Origin: Pyrinomonadaceae bacterium
GTDB taxonomy: Bacteria; Acidobacteriota; Blastocatellia; Pyrinomonadales; Pyrinomonadaceae
Length of the DNA stretch: 64,000 nt
Direction of reading: 5' to 3'
NCBI GenBank assembly: GCA_035545035.1
Contig: DASZZL010000159.1
Coordinates: 13,873-77,872, forward strand
Shown: positions 6,375 to 16,976 of the stretch, piece after piece
Layout of the letters: each line of letters begins with the position of its first letter
Position numbering within the stretch: the stretch's first letter is position 1
Notes under the pieces: model-generated
The model's database searches: none
The model's input: the letters and a program-made list of their open reading frames with translations, nothing else
Told to the model about the DNA's origin: nothing
Program-made: the position numbers and the translations under genes

Positions 6375-6460
6375 GTCAGTACCACCTGCGTTAGCGGGTG
6401 GGTCAAACACTCAACGCGGGTTGGGTGCTGGGTCCACCCGCTAACGCAGGTGGTACTGAC
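6375..6460. repeat. 27-bp perfect inverted repeat (family B) with 32-nt spacer
   Basis: 6375-6401 GTCAGTACCACCTGCGTTAGCGGGTGG is the exact reverse complement of 6434-6460. Single arms recur at 50066-50094 and 53472-53501. Confidence 0.9.
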
Positions 6461-6808
6461 AAGAGTTAAGGTTGTTGGACCCTACCTCGTGAGTTTGACG
6501 GTCTGGCGATGATTCGCCAGAAGTTCAGCAGCTCATGCAACCGTTAACTTTGGGAGGTTGATGTTGCGTGCTGCGCTTATGTAGGTGTTCGGCGTCATCC
6601 TCTTGCGAAAGAAACATATGTCAAACGGCAAACACGCCAACGCTGATCCAGCATGGCGAGCTTGGCCCTGTGGAAAATTCTCCTCTCGCCAAAGACAGGA
6701 GCGTTCTCGCCCATGGTAAACGAGTTGGCGGTCATTGACGGTAACAGCTTCGGAGCGTTTTCGTGGACCATGATTCTTCCCGTATTCCTCGCGACAACCG
6801 ATCCGCGG

Positions 6809-6817
6809 TGTTATACT
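6809..6817 (+). promoter_or_regulatory. Possible extended -10 promoter element (TGtTATACT) upstream of the HD-GHKL gene
   Basis: TGTTATACT lies 54 nt upstream of ATG 6871. No convincing -35. Pattern match only. Confidence 0.25.
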
Positions 6818-6870
6818 GACCTGCGCTAGCTCACCGATTGCTACAAAGAATGATTTAGACTCCATCGCGA

Positions 6871-9837
6871 ATGAAACTCCCGACTCGACTTGCGGATTTG
6901 TTAGCCTCAAATGCTGAACTGCTCGGCGCAGTCAATCTAACACTCCATGATTTCCTTATCTGGTTTGGCGACAGAAACATGGTGTTCTTTCCAGAGTACA
7001 CCGACCATGGACCGAAACATATTGAGGAAGTGATTGTTACGGCAGAGGCCCTAATCAAAGATGAGTCGTGGAGGCACTTGACTCCCGAAGATGCTGCAGT
7101 GTTAGTTCTCAGTGTTGTGCTTCACGATTGTGCGATGCACCTGAGTGAGGATGGATTTGTTGAGATCGTTAGTCCTGCTTCATCTCGCCAGATTGTTCCT
7201 GGCTTTAGTGAAAAGCCTTGGCCCGAGTTGTGGGCAGATTTTCTTGCTGAGGCATCCAGGTTCGATGCTCGAAAACTGAAAGCTCTCTTAGGAGACACCG
7301 AACCCATTCGACGGCCACCCTTAGACGCTCAGGAGATGACTCGTCGAGATCACTTACTAATCGGCGAATTTCTACGCCGCCATCATCCTCGGCTTGCCCA
7401 CGAGATCGCCTTGTGGGGTGTTCCGGGACCAAGTGAGGAAAAGATTAGGCTGGTTAGGGTACCTCATGGATTAGATAACCTCTCTGGACTTGTAGCGAGA
7501 AGTCACGGTCTAAACCTGCGTGAAGGCGTAAATACTCTTCCTCGAAATCATCGCCGCGAATATCTCAAGGTTCACACCCCGTTTTTAATGACAATCCTTC
7601 GCGTTGCTGATTACATACAGATTCATAGCGAGCGTGCCCCGACACAAGTTTTGAAGGTTCGATCTTTGAAGAGTCCTGTTTCTCAAGGCGAATGGAGGGC
7701 TCATGACGCTATAGAAGATATTAACTCCACACATGATGATCCTGAGGCTTTGGTAATCACCGCGCGACCAAAAGACGTAAAGGATTTCCTAAAGCTCGAA
7801 GGGCTGTTATCTGGGCTGCAGCGAGAATTAGACGATTCGTGGGCGTTTCTTGGTGAAATATATGGACTCTTACCAGGTTTAAAGGACTTAGGATTAACGA
7901 TTCGACGTGTCAGATCAAACTTGGATGACAGGCAGGAGTTTGCGAAGACAGTTTCATACTATCCAGATCGGATTCTTTTTGAGGCCGATCCGGAGATCCT
8001 TAAGCTCTTGATAGAGCCCCTATATGGCGACAACGGTGGGATAGCGATCAGGGAGTTGGTGCAGAATGCGGTGGATGCTTGTTTAGAACTTCGTGATTAT
8101 TTAAGGAGCACATCGCCTCAGGGCACGCACGACGTTAATTCCTACAAAGCAGAGGTGACTGTCCATCTTGATGGAGGGAAGGACGAAGGATGGCTTACCG
8201 TGCGTGACAACGGCACCGGTATGACTTCTGATGTGGTCAAAAACTACTTTTTGAAGGCTGGCGCTTCCTTCCGTCGCAGCGACGCTTGGAAGAGGCAACA
8301 CGAGACAGTTGATGGAAAACCACGCGTCCTTCGTTCTGGAAGGTTTGGAATCGGAATCTTGGCCGCGTTCTTGTTAGGTGACCAAGTAGAAGTAACAACT
8401 CGGCATGTTTCAAATCCGCCCGATCATGGTATTCAGTTCTCGGCCTCAATTGATGAAGAAGCGATAGAACTTCAAAGAGTTAATCTTCCTCACGTTGGAA
8501 CCACTGTTCGAGTTCGCTTGCCCAAGGGGACGGTGGCTAAATTCAAGCGAAAGCATTCGTCGCCTTGGGAAGACAAATGGGATTGGGATTGGTACTTTTT
8601 GGAGGATCCAGCCGTCAAGCGGACGCTTACACCGGAGCATCAGTCGAACGACGTCATGAGCGCTGAAGTGCTAGAACATGAACATTTCATTCCGAGTCCT
8701 CACACCAAACTGCCAACTGGTTGGCATCGCATTAGTCATGAAGACTTTGACGATATTCACTGGCACTTCCCCGAGAAGCGCTACAATCGAAGGGAAGCGG
8801 TGTTCTTCTGCAACGGAATTAAGATCGCTGGAGAATACGAGCGTGGACCCGACATCAAGAGAAAACTGAATTGGCAACTGTCCATACAACAACCCGTTCT
8901 TTCCATATTTGATGGCGCTGGAAAATTGCCGTTGAATCTTGCCCGTTTCGACTTAACAAGAGAGCTGGCTTTCGAACGTGAGCTATTGGAGGATATTTAC
9001 CGCGACTTGATCTCATACTTAATTGTGCGTACTCCGACAAGACCACTCTATGATCCTAAGACAGCTCAGCTCCACGGAAGTATTTCCTATCCCGGAAATT
9101 ATGGACACAACTGGTTTTGGAGTACACCGGGAGGGTTATCGCTCGCACACAAGTGGTTCCTCCGCCGCCTATCTCCGCCTAACTTGTACCTAGTGCCCGA
9201 ATTGATGGCATTGCAATTTCACCTTCCTAAACGTCATGCTTATATCGCATCCTTTGACCGTACCAGCTCTGGATTTGGTTACTACGACCCTTGGGTGCGA
9301 TTTGCGCTGACCGGGACGGGATTCCAAAGTCATTGGTTAGCAGGTCTCAAAGCAAAAGGTCGGCGCCTCTTAGTTAGCGCCGACTATGAAGATCGTATTA
9401 AGAAAAAAAAAGTTATCCCCAAAACGTTCTTCGCGACAATGATCGAAGAATGGAGAGACGACAATTGGGTGCTTCTAAGCACGAAGAATTGTCCACCTCC
9501 TAACGTTTCTTTTCAACGGTTGGCAGGTCAAGCGAAACCAGACGTCTTCACGATGTTGGCAGAGTGGTATTTAGAACCGAGCGAGAAGAATGTCGTTGAT
9601 GGTGATAACGACGTTGGCGATCTTGAATACGAAGACCGCGAGGATTTTTACTTGCCGGGGGGTAAGGTTGAGAGCAGAGACTCGGTCTTTGTGCCGGTCT
9701 GGAGGAACATCATTGGCGAATCCGCCATCATTCCATTCGACATCAAGAAGCGCAATACATCTCTGGCAGAAGCTATCCGTAAACTAGAGCCTTACATAAC
9801 ATTTCATCGGACTATCTCACAAAAATCAACGCGTTAG
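6871..9837 (+). CDS. HD-domain phosphohydrolase fused to Hsp90/sacsin-type GHKL ATPase, with a long unassigned C-terminal region
   Basis: HD signature: DHGPKHIEEV, VVLHDCAMHL, RRHHPRLAHE, RVADYIQIH. GHKL N-box ELVQNAVDA, G1 VRDNGTGMT, G2 SGRFGIGILAAF. A/T-ending codon bias unlike neighbouring genes. Confidence 0.8.
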   Translation: MKLPTRLADLLASNAELLGAVNLTLHDFLIWFGDRNMVFFPEYTDHGPKHIEEVIVTAEALIKDESWRHLTPEDAAVLVLSVVLHDCAMHLSEDGFVEIVSPASSRQIVPGFSEKPWPELWADFLAEASRFDARKLKALLGDTEPIRRPPLDAQEMTRRDHLLIGEFLRRHHPRLAHEIALWGVPGPSEEKIRLVRVPHGLDNLSGLVARSHGLNLREGVNTLPRNHRREYLKVHTPFLMTILRVADYIQIHSERAPTQVLKVRSLKSPVSQGEWRAHDAIEDINSTHDDPEALVITARPKDVKDFLKLEGLLSGLQRELDDSWAFLGEIYGLLPGLKDLGLTIRRVRSNLDDRQEFAKTVSYYPDRILFEADPEILKLLIEPLYGDNGGIAIRELVQNAVDACLELRDYLRSTSPQGTHDVNSYKAEVTVHLDGGKDEGWLTVRDNGTGMTSDVVKNYFLKAGASFRRSDAWKRQHETVDGKPRVLRSGRFGIGILAAFLLGDQVEVTTRHVSNPPDHGIQFSASIDEEAIELQRVNLPHVGTTVRVRLPKGTVAKFKRKHSSPWEDKWDWDWYFLEDPAVKRTLTPEHQSNDVMSAEVLEHEHFIPSPHTKLPTGWHRISHEDFDDIHWHFPEKRYNRREAVFFCNGIKIAGEYERGPDIKRKLNWQLSIQQPVLSIFDGAGKLPLNLARFDLTRELAFERELLEDIYRDLISYLIVRTPTRPLYDPKTAQLHGSISYPGNYGHNWFWSTPGGLSLAHKWFLRRLSPPNLYLVPELMALQFHLPKRHAYIASFDRTSSGFGYYDPWVRFALTGTGFQSHWLAGLKAKGRRLLVSADYEDRIKKKKVIPKTFFATMIEEWRDDNWVLLSTKNCPPPNVSFQRLAGQAKPDVFTMLAEWYLEPSEKNVVDGDNDVGDLEYEDREDFYLPGGKVESRDSVFVPVWRNIIGESAIIPFDIKKRNTSLAEAIRKLEPYITFHRTISQKSTR

Positions 9838-10058
9838 GCAAGACATTTCGCCTTCTCGCCGCTCATCACGATGACTTGGGCTCCAACCTCTCGTCGGGCA
9901 TGGCGACGTTGTAGTTGAGTGAGGTTGTGATGATCGAAGACCTGTTTCAGATCTTCCTCCTGCACGTGATCGTAGAGATCCATGTTTGTGTGCGCGGTGC
10001 GGGTGCCATACTCGATTTCATCGCGGATGAACATGAATCTGGGCGGCTTTCCATTCAA
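9834..10058 (-). CDS. Hypothetical small protein (no family recognised)
   Basis: Track ORF with TTG start at 10058 or ATG at 10034; convergent with and overlapping the stop of 6871..9837. No motif recognised. Confidence 0.3.
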   Translation of the reverse strand: MNGKPPRFMFIRDEIEYGTRTAHTNMDLYDHVQEEDLKQVFDHHNLTQLQRRHARREVGAQVIVMSGEKAKCLA

Positions 10059-10105
10059 CCGTCAATTCAGGCGCGGTCAAAAGGACGTTGATCTTTTCAG
10101 CGGTA

Positions 10106-10318
10106 TTAAAGCCTCTTCTCCTTGCGGGACGCCGTGATCTCCCGATCAATTTCGCGCATCGTCATCTTATCGGCGCCGGGGCGGGAAACGAGCTTAGCGG
10201 TTGCTTTCTTCTGCACTTCGAGAGCACGCGCGTAGATTTGCGCGAAATCGTCCTCGCACTCCTTCTCAATCTCCAGCCGCGCTCGCCGCACTTCGGCAAC
10301 TATCGGGTCTGTCCACAT
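10106..10318 (-). CDS. Small charged helical protein immediately downstream of the PIN pseudogene (possible toxin-antitoxin partner)
   Basis: ATG at 10318 (MWTDPIVAEVRRARLEIEKE..) sits 2 nt after the TGA (10321-10323) of the PIN ORF. 70 aa. Confidence 0.5.
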   Translation of the reverse strand: MWTDPIVAEVRRARLEIEKECEDDFAQIYARALEVQKKATAKLVSRPGADKMTMREIDREITASRKEKRL

Positions 10319-10320
10319 CT

Positions 10321-10793
10321 TCACACCTCCATCAACTCTTCCGGAGTACACACAATCGGCGTGTAAACACCCAGACGAGCGTTTGTATCTTGTAACATCT
10401 TCTGCACCCGTCCGCTGGCAATATGCTTGCAGTTCCACGAGAGCACGTAATCCATTCTGTGCCAAGCCGCAACCGCCAGGTGAAACGCATCAATCTTGGC
10501 CTTCTCCGGTATCTTCAGCGCGGCAAAATACTCGCGGGCCAAAGCTTCAACTTCTTCATTCACCTCCAAGACGGAGAAGTCTGCAATCGCTTCAAGACGA
10601 CAAGCGAAGCGTACTCGTCGTTTCCGCGTGTCGCCTCGTCTATGACAAACGGTGAGACAAAGCACTCGACTTCTGGGCGCACGCTCGCCCACCATTCAGA
10701 TGTAATCTGCTGATGTGCCGCAACGATCAGGTCCCTGCTCGGCTTCGCGGTCAAGTAGCTGATAATCGTTGTCTCAATGTAAACCGATGCCAC
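10321..10793 (-). pseudogene. VapC-like PIN-domain toxin, split by a frameshift near 10600-10640
   Basis: ORF 10560..10793 (MASVYIETTIISYL..FVSPFVIDEATRG) and ORF 10321..10695 (..RRGDTRKRR..VLEVNEEVEALAREY..DAFHLAVAAWHRMDYVLSWNCKHIA) are the N- and C-halves of one PIN protein in different frames. Confidence 0.7.
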
Positions 10794-11078
10794 AAGGCGC
10801 AGTATAGCAAATGGCGTAATCTTTAACTTGTCCTTTGCATCCCCTGTTGTTCATAATCGCCGCGCCCGGTCAAGTCGGACGTCATTCCGAGCAGTTTGGC
10901 CCGCGTGACCAGCGGGTCGGTTCGCGGTTCTGTAACGAAATATGGACTACGACGCAACTGACATAGCCTCTGCCTATGACCGTGGTCGCGATCATGGGCC
11001 GGAGTTTCTCGATCTTTGGATGAACGTTCTCTCGGCACACGTGAAAGATCAGCGCACAAAGCGATCCTGGACCGGTTA

Positions 11079-11199
11079 GCCACAGAGACACGGAGACACG
11101 GAGACACAGAGAAAGATGAAATCACCGAGAGGACAAGTCTATTGGCATTTCTGATCAATGCTGATCTGCCTTTTCTCGGTGACTCTGTGCCTCTGTGGC
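11079..11199. repeat. MITE-like element with CCACAGAGACAC..GTGCCTCTGTGG termini (family D, copy 1)
   Basis: GCCACAGAGACACGGAGACACGGAGACACAGAGAAAG ... GACTCTGTGCCTCTGTGGC. Copies at 45450-45551 and 59318-59398. Confidence 0.8.
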
Positions 11200-11293
11200 C
11201 GATTTCGCCTTCCTCAAGCCAATTGGCGTTTTCGTTTTTCGGAGCCCGCGAATGCAGGCGACATGATAAACGCTGGCTGGTGGAGGCCTTACC

Positions 11294-11914
11294 GTGAAAG
11301 CAAAAGCGAAGCTCACTAAGTCGATGACCATAACTCAGTTTGAAAATGGCTATTGGTATGCCACGGAACTGAAGAGATTTGCTGAGGCGATCGGAATTCC
11401 GTCGGCAAATAGACTGCGAAAAGACGAACTTGAAAAAGCGATCATTTCTTTTCTCGGGACCGGAACGATCCAAAGCCCAATCCGGAGCAGCCTCTCAAAA
11501 ACAGGAATCAGAGATGTCGAAAAAAGGCTGACCCTCAAACTTCCCGTGGTCAACTACACGAACGACAAGAAGACGAAAGATTTTCTCGAAAAAGAAGCTC
11601 GGAAAATCGCGCCCAACCTAAAAAGAAAATCGGGCGCACGCTATCGGCTGAATCGTTGGCGAGAAGAGCAGCTCACAAACGGCATCAAGATAACCTACAA
11701 GGATTTGGTAAACCAGTATGTTAAGTTGAATCAAACCAGAGAGCGCTTCGCCCAAATCCCACACGGGAGATATATCAATTTTATTAGCGATTTTTTCGCG
11801 GCAGAGAAAAATGCCACCAGAGAGCAGGCGATAAAAGCGTGGGAAAAGATCAAGAAAATGGATGTACCGAAAAACTATCGTTCGTGGGTTCAGCTACGGT
11901 CAAAACCAAATTGA
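11294..11914 (+). CDS. Hypothetical protein with SAP-like N-terminal motif
   Basis: GTG 11294 or ATG 11324 (MTITQFENGYWYATELKRFAEAIGIPSANRLRKDELEKAIISFL). AT-rich, Lys-rich. No enzymatic motif. Confidence 0.55.
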   Translation: MKAKAKLTKSMTITQFENGYWYATELKRFAEAIGIPSANRLRKDELEKAIISFLGTGTIQSPIRSSLSKTGIRDVEKRLTLKLPVVNYTNDKKTKDFLEKEARKIAPNLKRKSGARYRLNRWREEQLTNGIKITYKDLVNQYVKLNQTRERFAQIPHGRYINFISDFFAAEKNATREQAIKAWEKIKKMDVPKNYRSWVQLRSKPN

Positions 11915-12036
11915 AGGCCTGTGGGCTAGTGTTATGCCGTCGGCTACACCGACTGCTTATCGCTGACTTTTTAGGTCATCAAATCAGCCGCGAGTGCTAC
12001 AATTCAGCGAGCGGAATAATAACTAAAGCGATTTTT

Positions 12037-14766
12037 ATGGGGAGCCTATCCATGCCCGAGCTTCTGAGAATGATCGTGCGCACATCGGCAGCGTTTTCAA
12101 TCGCTGCGATCCTTGGTTTGTTGTTGTTCGGGCCGGTTACTACGGCGCAGCAGTACGACACCAATCTCTATTCCGGTTTGCATTGGCGGATGATTGGTCC
12201 GTTTCGCGCCGGGCGCGTGAACGCGGTCAGCGGCGTCATCGGACAACCAGAGACCTTCTATTTTGGCTCGGTCGGTGGTGGCGTTTGGAAGTCAACCAAC
12301 GCGGGTCGCACGTGGAAGCCGGTGTTTGATTCGCAATCCGCTGCATCGATTGGCGCGATCGGCGTCGCGCCGTCGGACGGAAGCGTCGTCTATGTCGGCA
12401 CCGGCGAGGCGGACATGCGCGATTCAATCCAGTTCGGTGACGGCATGTACAAATCCACCGACGCCGGCAAATCCTGGAAGCACATCGGACTTGAGAACAC
12501 GCGACAGATTGGTCGCGTGATTGTCGATCCGAAAAACCCGAACATCGTGTTTGTCGCGGCGCTGGGCCACGCTTACGGCCCGAGCCCCGACCGCGGTGTC
12601 TATCGCTCGCGCGATGGCGGCGCGACCTGGCAAAAAGTCCTGTTCAAGAACGACGACGTCGGCGCAATCGATCTCAATTTCGATCCCACCAATTCGCAGA
12701 TCGTTTACGCGACGATGTGGAATGTTCGTCGTCCTCCGTGGTTCATCTACGCTCCGGCGAACGGGCCGGGCGGCGGCATTTTCAAATCAAGTGACGGCGG
12801 CACGACATGGAAAGAAATCTCAGAAGGGATCCCGACAGAGAATCGCGGCCGCATCGGAGTCGCGGTCGCGCCGACGAATCGCAATCGTGTCTATGCCATG
12901 GTCGATGCAAAAGAAGGCGGGCTTTTCGTTTCGAATGATGCCGGCACGACTTGGACAAGGAACTCAAACGACAAGCGCGTTTGGGATCGCGGCTGGTACT
13001 TCTCCAAAGTCACCGCTGATCCGAAGAACGCGGACATAGTCTTTGCGTCGAACACTTCCGTTTATCGATCAACTGATGCGGGGAAAACGTGGACGGCGAT
13101 CAAAGGTGCGCCCGGCGGTGATGATTATCATCAGCTCTGGATCTATCCAGACGATCCGAAGCGCATGGTGCTCGGTAGCGATCAGGGCGCGATCGTAACC
13201 GTTGACGGCGCCGAGACGTGGAGTTCCTGGTACAACCAATCGACGGCGCAGATTTATCACGTCGCCGCCGACAGACGCATTCCTTACTGGGTGACCGGCG
13301 CGCAGCAGGACAGCGGCGCGGTCGGCACGCCTTCGCGCAGCCGGCACTCAGAGATTTCAAATCGCGACTGGGAAGGCTTGTGTTCCGGTGGCGAGTCAGG
13401 TTACACCGCGCCCGATCCCCTGCACCCGGAAATTCTTTTTGGCGGCACCGTCTCGCGCTGCAACGTCATCACCGGCGAAACAAAAAACGTTTCGCCTGAG
13501 CGCGGCGGAGGTCAGATAGTTTATCGACACGACTGGACGCAGCCGCTGGTGTTCTCACAAGCCGATCCGCACGCGCTCTACTACGCAAATCAGTTTCTCT
13601 ACAAGACGACAAACGGCGGCGAGAGTTGGACCCAAATTGGCCAGGACCTAACGCGCGAAGATCCGGGTGTGCCTCCGAACTTGAACGAAGCCGCCGCGGC
13701 TGACGCGCCGAAAGAGAAACGGCGCGGCGTGATTTACACGATTGCGCCTTCGCCCCTGCGCGCGTCGATGATTTGGATCGGCACGGACGACGGCCTGATC
13801 CAGGGAACGAATGACGATGGCAAGACCTGGAAGAACGTGACGCCGCCCGCGCTGACTTCGTGGAGCAAGGTCGTGATGATCGAAGCGTCGCATTTTGATG
13901 TCGACGAAGCTTACGCGGCAGTTGAGCGGCATCAACTCGAAGACTACGAACCGCACATCTATCGCACGCGCGACGCGGGCAAGACGTGGACTGAGATCAC
14001 GAATGGATTGCCGCCTGGCGTTTACGTGCAAACGGTGAAAGAAGATCCGTCGCGGCGCGGGCTTTTGTTCGCCGGCACCGAGCGCGCGGTCTTCGTTTCG
14101 TTTGACGACGGCGATCACTGGCAGTCTTTGCAACTCAATCTGCCGCCGGCATCGATGCGCGATCTCGCGATTCACGAAGACGATCTGATTGTCGCCACTC
14201 ACGGGCGCGGCTTCTGGGTGCTCGACGACATCTCCGCGCTGCGACAAATCAATGATGACGTTTCGAAGGCCGATGCCTTTCTGTTTCGGCCCGCAGAGGC
14301 CCTCAACATTACACCCGGCAGTGACAACGGCACGCCCATGCCGCGCGACGAACCGCTCGCCGAAAATCCTCCTTACGGCGCGCTGATTGATTACTATTTG
14401 AAATCGAACGCTAACGGTCCTGTAACTCTTGAGATTCTCGATCCATCGGGCGATGTGATTCGTCGTTATTCCAATGATGACAAGAACCCACCCGTCAATC
14501 CAGACACGCTCAACATTCCCGCGTTCTGGGTGCGCACGCCTGAACCGCTCTCGGCCGCGGCGGGTATGCATCGATGGATTTGGGATCTTCGTCCAACGCC
14601 GCCTCAGCGACCCGCCGGAGGGGGAGGCGGCGGTGGTGGCGGTGGCGGTTTTGGTGGTCGCGGTGCGTCCGCCGTGCTGCCCGGGGCGTATACGGTAAAG
14701 CTGACCGTCGGGGGCAAGAGCTACACGCAACCGCTCGTCGTGAAGATGGATCCGCGGGCAAAGTAA
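12037..14766 (+). CDS. BNR/Asp-box repeat double beta-propeller exported protein, paralog of 1..2631
   Basis: ATG 12037 (or 12052) precedes signal-like MPELLRMIVRTSAAFSIAAILGLLLFGPVTTAQQ. Asp-boxes: STNAGRTWK, STDAGKSWK, SRDGGATWQ, SSDGGTTWK, SNDAGTTWT, STDAGKTWT, TTNGGESWT, TNDDGKTWK, TRDAGKTWT. Gly run GGGGGGGGGGFGGRG near the C-terminus. Confidence 0.9.
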   Translation: MGSLSMPELLRMIVRTSAAFSIAAILGLLLFGPVTTAQQYDTNLYSGLHWRMIGPFRAGRVNAVSGVIGQPETFYFGSVGGGVWKSTNAGRTWKPVFDSQSAASIGAIGVAPSDGSVVYVGTGEADMRDSIQFGDGMYKSTDAGKSWKHIGLENTRQIGRVIVDPKNPNIVFVAALGHAYGPSPDRGVYRSRDGGATWQKVLFKNDDVGAIDLNFDPTNSQIVYATMWNVRRPPWFIYAPANGPGGGIFKSSDGGTTWKEISEGIPTENRGRIGVAVAPTNRNRVYAMVDAKEGGLFVSNDAGTTWTRNSNDKRVWDRGWYFSKVTADPKNADIVFASNTSVYRSTDAGKTWTAIKGAPGGDDYHQLWIYPDDPKRMVLGSDQGAIVTVDGAETWSSWYNQSTAQIYHVAADRRIPYWVTGAQQDSGAVGTPSRSRHSEISNRDWEGLCSGGESGYTAPDPLHPEILFGGTVSRCNVITGETKNVSPERGGGQIVYRHDWTQPLVFSQADPHALYYANQFLYKTTNGGESWTQIGQDLTREDPGVPPNLNEAAAADAPKEKRRGVIYTIAPSPLRASMIWIGTDDGLIQGTNDDGKTWKNVTPPALTSWSKVVMIEASHFDVDEAYAAVERHQLEDYEPHIYRTRDAGKTWTEITNGLPPGVYVQTVKEDPSRRGLLFAGTERAVFVSFDDGDHWQSLQLNLPPASMRDLAIHEDDLIVATHGRGFWVLDDISALRQINDDVSKADAFLFRPAEALNITPGSDNGTPMPRDEPLAENPPYGALIDYYLKSNANGPVTLEILDPSGDVIRRYSNDDKNPPVNPDTLNIPAFWVRTPEPLSAAAGMHRWIWDLRPTPPQRPAGGGGGGGGGGGFGGRGASAVLPGAYTVKLTVGGKSYTQPLVVKMDPRAK

Positions 14767-16523: not shown

Positions 16524-16976
16524 ATGAGCAGAACCTTCACCAACCTTCTGACACATGTCGTCTTCAGCACGAAAGATCGCGAGCCCTTGATCGTCTCCGA
16601 TCTTAAACCGGAGTTGTATGCGTATCTCGGCGGCTTGACGCGCGAACTCAAAGGGAAGGCTTATGGCATCAACGGAACGGATGATCGCGTTCACCTGCTG
16701 ATCAGCCTCCCCCCGGTCGTCTCGATGTCGGACGCACTTCGGTTCCTAAAATCGAACTCCTCGGGTTGGGTGCATGATAAGTGGCCGCATAGAAAATCGT
16801 TTGCCTGGCAACTGGGATACGGAGCGTTCAGTGTGAGCAAGTCTAATGTTCCAGGCGTGCTAAAGTACATCGGCAATCAGGAAGCGCATCACCGTCGAGT
16901 TACATTCAAGGAAGAGTTCGTCGACTTTCTGATCAAGCATGAAATCGAATACGACGAGCGCTACATTTGGTCTTGA
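16524..16976 (+). CDS. IS200/IS605-family Y1 transposase-like protein of the REP-associated (RAYT) type
   Basis: FTNLLTHVVFSTKDREPLI, GTDDRVHLLISL (HUH position), FAWQLGYGAFSVS, YIGNQEAHHRR, EYDERYIW. Flanked by inverted family A REPs. Confidence 0.85.
   Translation: MSRTFTNLLTHVVFSTKDREPLIVSDLKPELYAYLGGLTRELKGKAYGINGTDDRVHLLISLPPVVSMSDALRFLKSNSSGWVHDKWPHRKSFAWQLGYGAFSVSKSNVPGVLKYIGNQEAHHRRVTFKEEFVDFLIKHEIEYDERYIWS

Follow-up and report, generated by a model that had tools for sequence, protein, structure and literature searches.

Fusions of an HD-CE domain with an HSP90-type ATPase have reportedly been described among the predicted immune proteins of prokaryotes, where HSP90- and HSP70-related modules are said to serve as analogs of STAND and GTPase domains and to be coupled to nucleotide-targeting effectors. 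Here, we analyzed a gene for such a fusion in a stretch of 64,000 nucleotides (nt) from a Pyrinomonadaceae bacterium of the phylum Acidobacteriota (GenBank assembly GCA_035545035.1, contig DASZZL010000159.1, positions 13,873 to 77,872 of the forward strand), which is called the window throughout. The encoded protein of 988 amino acids (aa) is predicted to join an HD-CE phosphohydrolase, an Hsp90-type split ATPase and a family-specific C-terminal domain, and in its split ATPase a GHKL N-domain is probably complemented by a middle domain with the catalytic arginine loop. In our judgment it is probable, though far from certain, that the protein belongs to the HD-CE–HSP90 class of predicted prokaryotic immune proteins, as a stand-alone member that was acquired horizontally. 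It resembles the described members in the N-terminal HD-CE domain that is fused to an Hsp90-like GHKL domain within one polypeptide, in its stand-alone gene and in its patchy distribution. In contrast to them, it falls into a divergent clade that is rich in Acidobacteriota and Myxococcota, and the profiles of the middle and C-terminal domains of this clade miss the other HD-CE–GHKL clades. A first-pass annotation, made by a model from the sequence without database searches, had been unable to place the protein in any named system, whereas the family turned out to be already catalogued in Pfam as HD-CE (PF24391). The architecture is therefore a catalogued one, and it is no new kind of system.

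Other defenses come close to this protein in single aspects. In the PUA–Calcineurin-CE–HAD anti-phage system, Calcineurin-CE depletes deoxynucleoside triphosphates (dNTPs) and the infection is aborted (PMC12871103). Its effector is a conflict-effector phosphoesterase of the same conceptual class and is likewise coupled to a sensor. However, that effector is calcineurin-like and the sensor is a PUA domain, while the window protein combines an HD domain with an Hsp90-like module; moreover, the system comprises two genes, forms filaments and has no sequence kinship with the window protein. VcSduA of type I-D Shedu, which is built as GHKL ATPase–clamp–DUF4263 nuclease, has been validated as a single-gene defense, with its ATPase motifs mutated (PMC12137116). 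There, too, an effector fused within a single protein is thought to be under the control of a GHKL ATPase and the middle domain behind it. In contrast, the effector of VcSduA is a C-terminal PD-(D/E)xK nuclease and that of the window protein is the N-terminal HD-CE domain, homology is confined to the GHKL fold, and no PADLOC Shedu model matches the window protein. Chaperone modules of the DnaK-like type have in turn been described as fused to protease-effector defense modules (PMC12642450).

The gene and its start are real, because an identical gene has already been called on a public 4-kb contig and homologs of 940-1040 residues align over 99-100% of the 988-aa protein. A protein search returned 1,439 matches, the best 120 of which were nearly all 940-1040 aa long and composed of HD-CE and HATPase_c_3; the named homologs among the best matches belong to Corallococcus, Sorangium, Acidobacteriota and Pyrinomonadaceae. 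The Pfam HD-CE profile reached 145.9 bits against a cut-off of 27 bits and was covered from position 1 to 262 of its 263 positions. When residue conservation was scored in an alignment of 60 full-length homologs, H85, H90, H172, H212, H235 and D247 were found to be invariant, and H46, H50 and D86 were conserved in at least 90% of the sequences. Thus the HD domain with all its metal-ligand motifs, which the first-pass annotation had recognized, was recovered with the motif HDCAMH at residues 85-90. With its metal-binding residues intact, the domain represents the active HD-CE form and not the inactive form iHD-CE, whose profile gave no match to the protein in the Pfam scan. The family is said to be predicted to attack free nucleotides and not to act as a nuclease. 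HD-superfamily phosphohydrolases that starve an invader of nucleotides offer an analogy in SAMHD1 and the bacterial dGTPase-type defenses. However, sequence similarity to these was not detectable, as a phmmer search down to E<=10 retrieved no PDB relative of the HD-CE region and Pfam assigned the protein to no further HD family; furthermore, control is proposed here to be exerted by the fused ATPase and there by allosteric nucleotide sites. One homolog is already named "HD-CE domain-containing protein" in UniRef, and the "CE" of the name abbreviates conflict effector, a meaning given for the sister family Calcineurin-CE (PMC12871103).

The central ATPase is closest to Hsp90. HATPase_c_3 matched residues 392-535 in Pfam, and the three ATPase boxes already listed in the first-pass annotation were all found in place (ELVQNAVDA at residues 395-403, VRDNGTGMT at 444-452 and GRFGIGILAAF at 490-500), with E395, N399, D446, G448, G450 and G490 to G495 invariant or nearly so among the 60 homologs. 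The best NCBIfam match was HtpG (E=1e-19), followed by an HSP90-family model (E=8e-18), and BbrUII/HgiDII restriction enzymes, sacsin and topo VI-B ranked lower. When the family profile was compared with the PDB, the best 60 matches were Hsp90-family N-domains only, and hhalign aligned the domain to residues 8-183 of Escherichia coli HtpG with a probability of 98.6% and 31% identity, all ATP-binding boxes being present. An AlphaFold2 model of the whole protein (mean predicted local distance difference test score, pLDDT, 85; predicted template modeling score, pTM, 0.76) gave the same picture: its best 50 Foldseek matches in the PDB were all full-length or N-plus-middle-domain structures of Hsp90s, namely GRP94, HtpG, TRAP1, Hsp82 and HSP90-beta. 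These alignments span about 390-550 columns and extend about 200 residues past the N-domain. Consequently, of the earlier description as Hsp90/sacsin/MORC-type and not kinase-type, the Hsp90 part was borne out by NCBIfam, PDB profile, hhalign and Foldseek, whereas a kinship with MORC was not. A MORC/paraMORC identity of the GHKL domain was rejected, given that the best 60 profile matches and the best 50 Foldseek matches all belong to the Hsp90 family; MORC3 appeared only at E=2.1, with the C-terminal model in Foldseek.

Nevertheless, the 988-aa protein is Hsp90-like and not an Hsp90 ortholog, because its scores stay far below the equivalog cut-offs (70.5 vs 371 bits for HtpG, 64 vs 455 bits for HSP90) and because its C-terminus is different. 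It shares with HtpG, besides the N-domain, probably also the catalytic-arginine loop (LPLNxxR here, LPLNVSR in HtpG), and the best fold matches cover about 400 residues. In contrast to HtpG, however, it carries an additional N-terminal HD effector, its C-terminal ~220 residues show no likeness to the Hsp90 dimerization domain that could be detected by sequence or fold, and its gene is no conserved housekeeping gene. Comparison of the full-length model with BFVD retrieved giant-virus Hsp90 and phage RIIA proteins over ~400 columns, with E-values down to 4e-10 and a likeness that covers the GHKL domain plus the domain following it. RIIA is a phage protein that is involved in host-exclusion conflict. 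In PHROGs, there were GHKL-level matches only, to RIIA and to one unknown family.

These results bear on the alternative that the protein is a restriction-like nuclease, in which the HD domain would cut invading DNA or RNA in the manner of the Cas3 HD domain, while the GHKL domain would serve as an ATP-driven clamp on nucleic acids, like that of MORC, MutL or topoisomerase. This alternative comes close to what the first-pass annotation had proposed. HD domains do include nucleases, GHKL–nuclease fusions such as VcSduA are real defenses, and the GHKL region weakly matches models of BbrUII/HgiDII-family and type II restriction enzymes (NCBIfam NF050001, E=5.6e-10; PADLOC REase_II, E=1e-3). However, the match to the BbrUII/HgiDII model is limited to residues 424-554, thus to the common ATPase fold, and reaches 38 bits against a cut-off of 550 bits. 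The ATPase is nearest to Hsp90 and not to MutL, MORC or topoisomerase, neither Pfam nor the PDB profile search nor Foldseek found a DNA-binding domain, and the protein contains no restriction nuclease domain. In addition, the comparison of 83 loci of the family revealed no conserved methyltransferase or other partner for self-protection, and the HD-CE family is reportedly defined as nucleotide-targeting. We thus consider a nuclease of this kind unlikely.

Beyond the N-domain, the first-pass annotation had seen no recognizable motif past about residue 560. For the middle region this appears not to hold. In Hsp90, a middle-domain loop of the form LPLN[LIV]SRE provides an arginine (R336 in HtpG, R380 in yeast) that completes the ATPase site. 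When a profile of residues 561-770 was compared with E. coli HtpG, the sole local match was precisely this R336 loop, SDLPLNVSREILQ (HtpG residues 328-343), to which the family consensus gkLPLnLqRt was weakly aligned (E=0.05). The corresponding LPLNLAR motif lies at residues 686-692 of the window protein and recurs across the clade, and its arginine R692 is invariant among the 60 homologs. Residues 561-770 are therefore a probable divergent Hsp90-type middle domain.

The remaining residues, ~771-988, indeed match nothing in the PDB. Fold searches, which the first-pass annotation had recommended, were run on the full-length protein and on the C-terminal region separately and returned Hsp90 for the former and nothing significant for the latter. 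Residues 561-988 alone were modeled well (mean pLDDT 80, pTM 0.83), yet the best PDB match of this model in Foldseek had E=0.28, and Hsp90 middle domains and MORC3 were met only at non-significant E~1-2. By sequence, too, there was no PDB match to the C-terminal region, and a profile search gave one chance-level match. P955 and R961 of the C-terminal domain are invariant among the 60 homologs, and the domain may have a role as sensor or in dimerization. Among 1.84 billion proteins, the C-terminal 428 residues matched ~500 representative proteins, almost always at positions ~560-930 of proteins of ~950-1000 aa. Ten matches had an atypical length: four N-terminally cut HD-CE proteins, one longer HD-CE protein of 1146 aa, four without an HD-CE match, which are perhaps fragments, and one with an additional APH kinase-like domain. 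The last of these, the metagenomic protein P0189 of 1345 aa, carries an APH/kinase-like domain (PF01636) at residues 1039-1250, after the HD-CE–GHKL–C-terminal module.

With respect to the family as a whole, one genome per species was scanned, and relatives were found in at least 505 species genomes with a patchy distribution across phyla. They occur in Acidobacteriota, Myxococcota, Planctomycetota, Serratia, Ralstonia, Leisingera, Bacteroidota and Chlorobiaceae, and further in Campylobacterota, Nitrospirota, Bacillota, Actinomycetota and the archaeal genus Methanosarcina. According to domain profiles derived from our alignments, the core clade comprises HD-CE, GHKL and the middle domain, usually together with the C-terminal domain. 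Distant clades of about 805-830 or about 1000-1160 aa share only HD-CE and GHKL by these profiles, and such distant fusions are present in Bacillota, Actinomycetota and Methanosarcina. In Pfam, all nine distant homologs scanned showed the HD-CE + HATPase_c_3 fusion, with HD-CE scores that were even higher. As judged from these profile matches, the HD-CE–GHKL fusion is an established and widespread architecture, and the window protein belongs to one clade of it. The HD-CE domain of a homolog from Methanosarcina sp. Z-7115 (locus L069, 9848-12835) matched positions 699-911 of the PADLOC model RT_UG24 (DRT) with E=8e-19, so that, by implication, an HD-CE effector is present at the C-terminus of UG24 reverse transcriptases. 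Since it is the C-terminal part of the RT_UG24 model that is matched, HD-CE appears to be an effector that swaps partners.

The gene also shows signs of horizontal acquisition. It lies in a low-GC islet (GC content 0.48-0.52 vs 0.53-0.60 in the flanks; Table 1), and the GC content of its third codon positions (GC3) is 0.476 vs 0.650 +/- 0.041 in the 35 other window genes of at least 150 aa (z=-4.2), which makes it the lowest value in the window. The codon usage had initially been described as strongly A/T-ending and unlike that of the flanking genes. The gene is indeed an outlier, but with this GC3 its third position is roughly balanced. Furthermore, window positions 8161-10823 are 90% identical to a contig of a Pyrinomonadaceae metagenome-assembled genome (loci L003/L004); the remaining genes of this contig lack any counterpart in the window. 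There, the first ~445 codons of the HD-CE/Hsp90 gene are missing, and what is left of the gene comes right behind the C-terminal fragment of an rve-type transposase (L003:3-383). Because the islet is shared in different flanks and the gene is truncated after a transposase fragment, it follows that the islet was moved or rearranged and that the gene can be dispensed with. Thus the gene does not behave as a core, syntenic and vertically inherited one, the pattern which the first-pass annotation held to be incompatible with its proposal, and the horizontal acquisition postulated there is supported by the outlying composition and by the islet shared with a relative in different flanks.

Downstream of the gene, the decayed PIN toxin module of the first-pass annotation was confirmed as well. 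With tblastn, two segments that lie in different frames (10796-10581 and 10638-10324) were aligned to an intact PIN protein of 157 aa, which is encoded in the relative (L003 2555-3028, minus strand; PIN E=1e-5), and relative to this ortholog the window copy is frameshifted. The decay is reciprocal, with a broken PIN gene in the window and a truncated HD-CE gene in the relative. One might therefore regard the HD-CE–Hsp90-like gene as a selfish or decaying passenger that came on a small mobile islet, accompanied by a PIN toxin module, and that by now has no function and is either neutral or being lost. The frameshift in the adjacent PIN gene, the truncation of the orthologous gene in L003 and L004 and the low GC content of the islet would fit such a passenger. 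However, the window copy is full length with every catalytic residue intact, an identical copy is found on another public contig, and the preservation of the complete architecture in homologs of 40-90% identity implies purifying selection. A functionless passenger is thus very unlikely. As part of a system with the HD-CE–Hsp90-like protein the PIN module was dismissed, as it is shared only with the closest relatives among the 83 loci. Two small open reading frames (ORFs) on the minus strand, 9834-10058 and 10106-10465, lie between the gene and the PIN pseudogene and have ~85% aa identity to counterparts in L003/L004. No Pfam family matched either of them. They may be partners of the PIN toxin, in which case the genes would stand in the unusual order with the toxin first.

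Table 1. Features of the HD-CE–Hsp90-like gene and its islet, given in window positions
Feature	Position	Strand	Basis
HD-CE–Hsp90-like protein gene, complete, 988 aa	6871..9837	+	ATG start, stop codon included
HD-CE phosphohydrolase domain, residues 40-321	6988..7833	+	Pfam PF24391, E=2.4e-42
HD motif HDCAMH, residues 85-90	7123-7140	+	Sequence motif
Hsp90-type GHKL ATPase N-domain, residues ~371-560	7981..8550	+	HATPase_c_3, HtpG and PDB profile matches
ATPase boxes ELVQNAVDA; DNGTG; GRFGIGILAAF	8053-8079; 8206-8220; 8338-8370	+	Sequence motifs
Putative Hsp90-like middle domain, residues ~561-770	8551..9180	+	LPLNLAR loop, full-model Foldseek
LPLNLAR catalytic-arginine loop, residues 686-692	8926-8946	+	Aligns weakly to HtpG R336 loop
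Family-specific alpha/beta C-terminal domain, residues ~771-988, ends in three-helix bundle	9181..9834	+	AlphaFold2 model
Frameshifted PIN-domain gene	10321..10793	-	PIN match; tblastn vs 157-aa ortholog
Low-GC islet with the gene, between DUF1801 gene and BNR/sortilin gene	6400..11900 (approximate, ~5.5 kb)	.	GC drop

Some further features of the islet and its borders were observed. A 41-nt inverted repeat (arms 6375-6415 and 6420-6460, 88% complementary, 4-nt loop) lies at the left islet edge, just past the DUF1801 gene, and could be a terminator, a REP-like element or the remnant of a mobile-element end. A search for att-like direct repeats flanking the islet gave only a 26-nt pair with 77% identity, probably a chance match. 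Within the low-GC tract, an ORF on the plus strand (11294-11914, 206 aa) encodes an N-terminal SAP-type domain (SAP_new25, E=6e-11); it precedes the second of two BNR/sortilin genes and overlaps its predicted start. The products of these two genes are paralogous BNR/sortilin-Vps10-like proteins (94-2631 and 11839-14766, plus strand) that bracket the islet, and the second contains about eleven consecutive glycines close to its C-terminus. An IS200-like Y1 transposase is encoded at 16524-16976 on the plus strand, 7 kb downstream of the HD-CE–Hsp90-like gene.

Genomic neighborhoods were compared across the 83 loci. All-against-all BLASTP clustering revealed no neighbor family in common beyond the gene itself, except that the small ORFs downstream and the PIN gene are common to the three closest loci. 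This absence of conserved neighbors agrees with the single-gene unit proposed in the first-pass annotation. Nine neighborhoods were annotated individually and split about evenly between mobile or defense contexts and ordinary ones. The Sorangium locus is rich in mobile and defense genes (ParE and antitoxins, HNH, Uma2, RadC, IS21, a NACHT ATPase and RHS). A soil genome (L087) encodes SSB, ParB, ArdC, a helicase-DUF559 protein, a protein that combines a reverse transcriptase (RT) with PNP, an OLD-like AAA_23/AAA_21 ATPase and PolB. The RT gene of L087 (13356-15869), directly downstream of the homolog, encodes an RVT_1 + PNP_UDP_1 fusion, that is, a reverse transcriptase with a nucleoside phosphorylase-like domain. 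At locus L089, an IS200-like Y1 transposase (13749-14192) immediately follows the homolog, and toxin–antitoxin or insertion sequence (IS) elements are present both in the window and in L003. Two members of the distant clades are encoded on plasmids, where one adjoins a type I restriction–modification system and the other IS3 elements and an sce7726/beta-protein pair. Of the genomic traits of a conflict system, the family thus shows patchiness, horizontal transfer and lack of synteny, but mobile or defense neighbors occur in some loci only and are non-recurrent in the core clade. The neighborhood analysis suggested by the first-pass annotation therefore gave a divided result, namely mobile or defense context in some loci but no recurrent association in the core clade. 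An enrichment of the core clade in defense islands, which we had considered, was discarded, as no family recurred and only a handful of mobile or defense matches was obtained.

Several observations weigh against an immune function. The proteins within two genes of the homologs were scanned with Pfam and PADLOC, those three to five genes away with Pfam. No Pfam family occurred in more than 2 of the 139 proteins of the former set or in more than 2 of the 145 of the latter, and most of these neighbors are metabolic or regulatory. About 6% of the proteins within two genes look mobile or defense-related: two transposases, one conflict-system NTase, one YhcG-type PD-(D/E)xK nuclease, SoFic, PDC-S02, PD-T4-2_B (two proteins) and one REase. 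Four of the nine annotated neighborhoods are housekeeping or hypothetical (Corallococcus, L088, L002 and L090). No phage was found to carry the gene, and only three distant matches lie on plasmids. PADLOC was run as the first-pass annotation had advised, and no named defense system was matched; in PADLOC-DB v2.0.0, no system-specific model recognized the protein, and REase_II alone was hit through the GHKL domain (E=1e-3 and 0.02). Seven other family members behaved likewise, save for the HD-CE match to RT_UG24. In the literature we found no experimental test of any family member. The middle-domain call consists of a short motif (E=0.05) and loose fold alignments with a template modeling score of about 0.4, and its fold match is non-significant when the C-terminal part is searched by itself. 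Finally, we infer the defense role from a family-level prediction and a patchy context, and substrate, trigger and oligomeric state likewise belong to what we infer.

Part of this evidence would fit a non-immune function, in which the protein would be an accessory chaperone-coupled or stress-regulated phosphohydrolase that serves host physiology, for example in the turnover of signaling nucleotides. Core-clade neighbors are mostly metabolic or housekeeping genes, in Corallococcus exiguus the gene stands in the same ordinary context in two assemblies, the family is found preferentially in large-genome Acidobacteriota and Myxococcota from soil, and PADLOC models do not match. However, the loci lack synteny and the distribution over the phyla is patchy, the gene is a composition outlier in an islet common to a relative in different flanks, and the copy of that relative is cut off right behind a fragment of a transposase. 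At several loci the mobile or defense context is plain, and HD-CE is also fused in a defense-type reverse transcriptase model. A purely physiological role is consequently quite unlikely, and we prefer the interpretation as a stand-alone immune protein of the HD-CE–HSP90 class.

If the protein is such an immune protein, its mode of action might be envisioned as follows. The Hsp90-like module and the C-terminal domain would together form sensor and switch, like the STAND NTPase in other immune proteins, and in the resting state the HD-CE domain would be kept inactive. ATP-driven closure or dimerization of the N-domains is the general mechanism of GHKL ATPases and Hsp90. An invader cue, for example a phage protein or some other client to which the chaperone-like module binds, would trigger this ATP-dependent closure or dimerization and thereby release or assemble the HD-CE domains. 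These would then hydrolyze free nucleotides (dNTPs, NTPs or a related pool), and the loss of nucleotides would stall phage replication or arrest the infected cell in an abortive infection. The first-pass annotation had likewise proposed an ATP-driven sensor or clamp coupled to an HD effector. Its Hsp90-like ATPase and its HD domain were recovered, with both catalytic sites conserved, and its defense role remains a predicted one. One might speculate further that the Hsp90-like module and the orphan-fold C-terminal domain constitute a chaperone-derived pattern-recognition receptor for a phage-encoded or perturbed client, which would switch on a nucleotide-depleting HD domain in the same polypeptide by means of the ATP-driven closure cycle of Hsp90; the Acidobacteriota/Myxococcota clade would then possess an undescribed sensor domain. 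This more specific idea is tentative, and we regard it as doubtful at this stage.

Taken together, the novelty of this locus is modest. It lies in the middle region, which probably keeps the Hsp90 catalytic loop, in the C-terminal domain, which lacks a structural precedent and is confined to this clade, and in a clean case of an islet that is shared in different flanks and has decayed reciprocally. The window contributes a full-length and intact gene from a soil lineage that has received little study, together with a confident structural model, a list of residues that can be mutated (H85/D86, E395/N399, R692) and said C-terminal domain. If our interpretation as an immune protein is true, the family would represent a one-gene immunity in which a chaperone-type ATPase, and not a STAND/NLR protein, a helicase or a cyclase, reads the signal of infection and activates a nucleotide-degrading enzyme. 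It would extend two themes, nucleotide depletion and single-protein fusions of sensor and effector, and would provide a simple model of how Hsp90-type conformational cycles are rewired for signaling.

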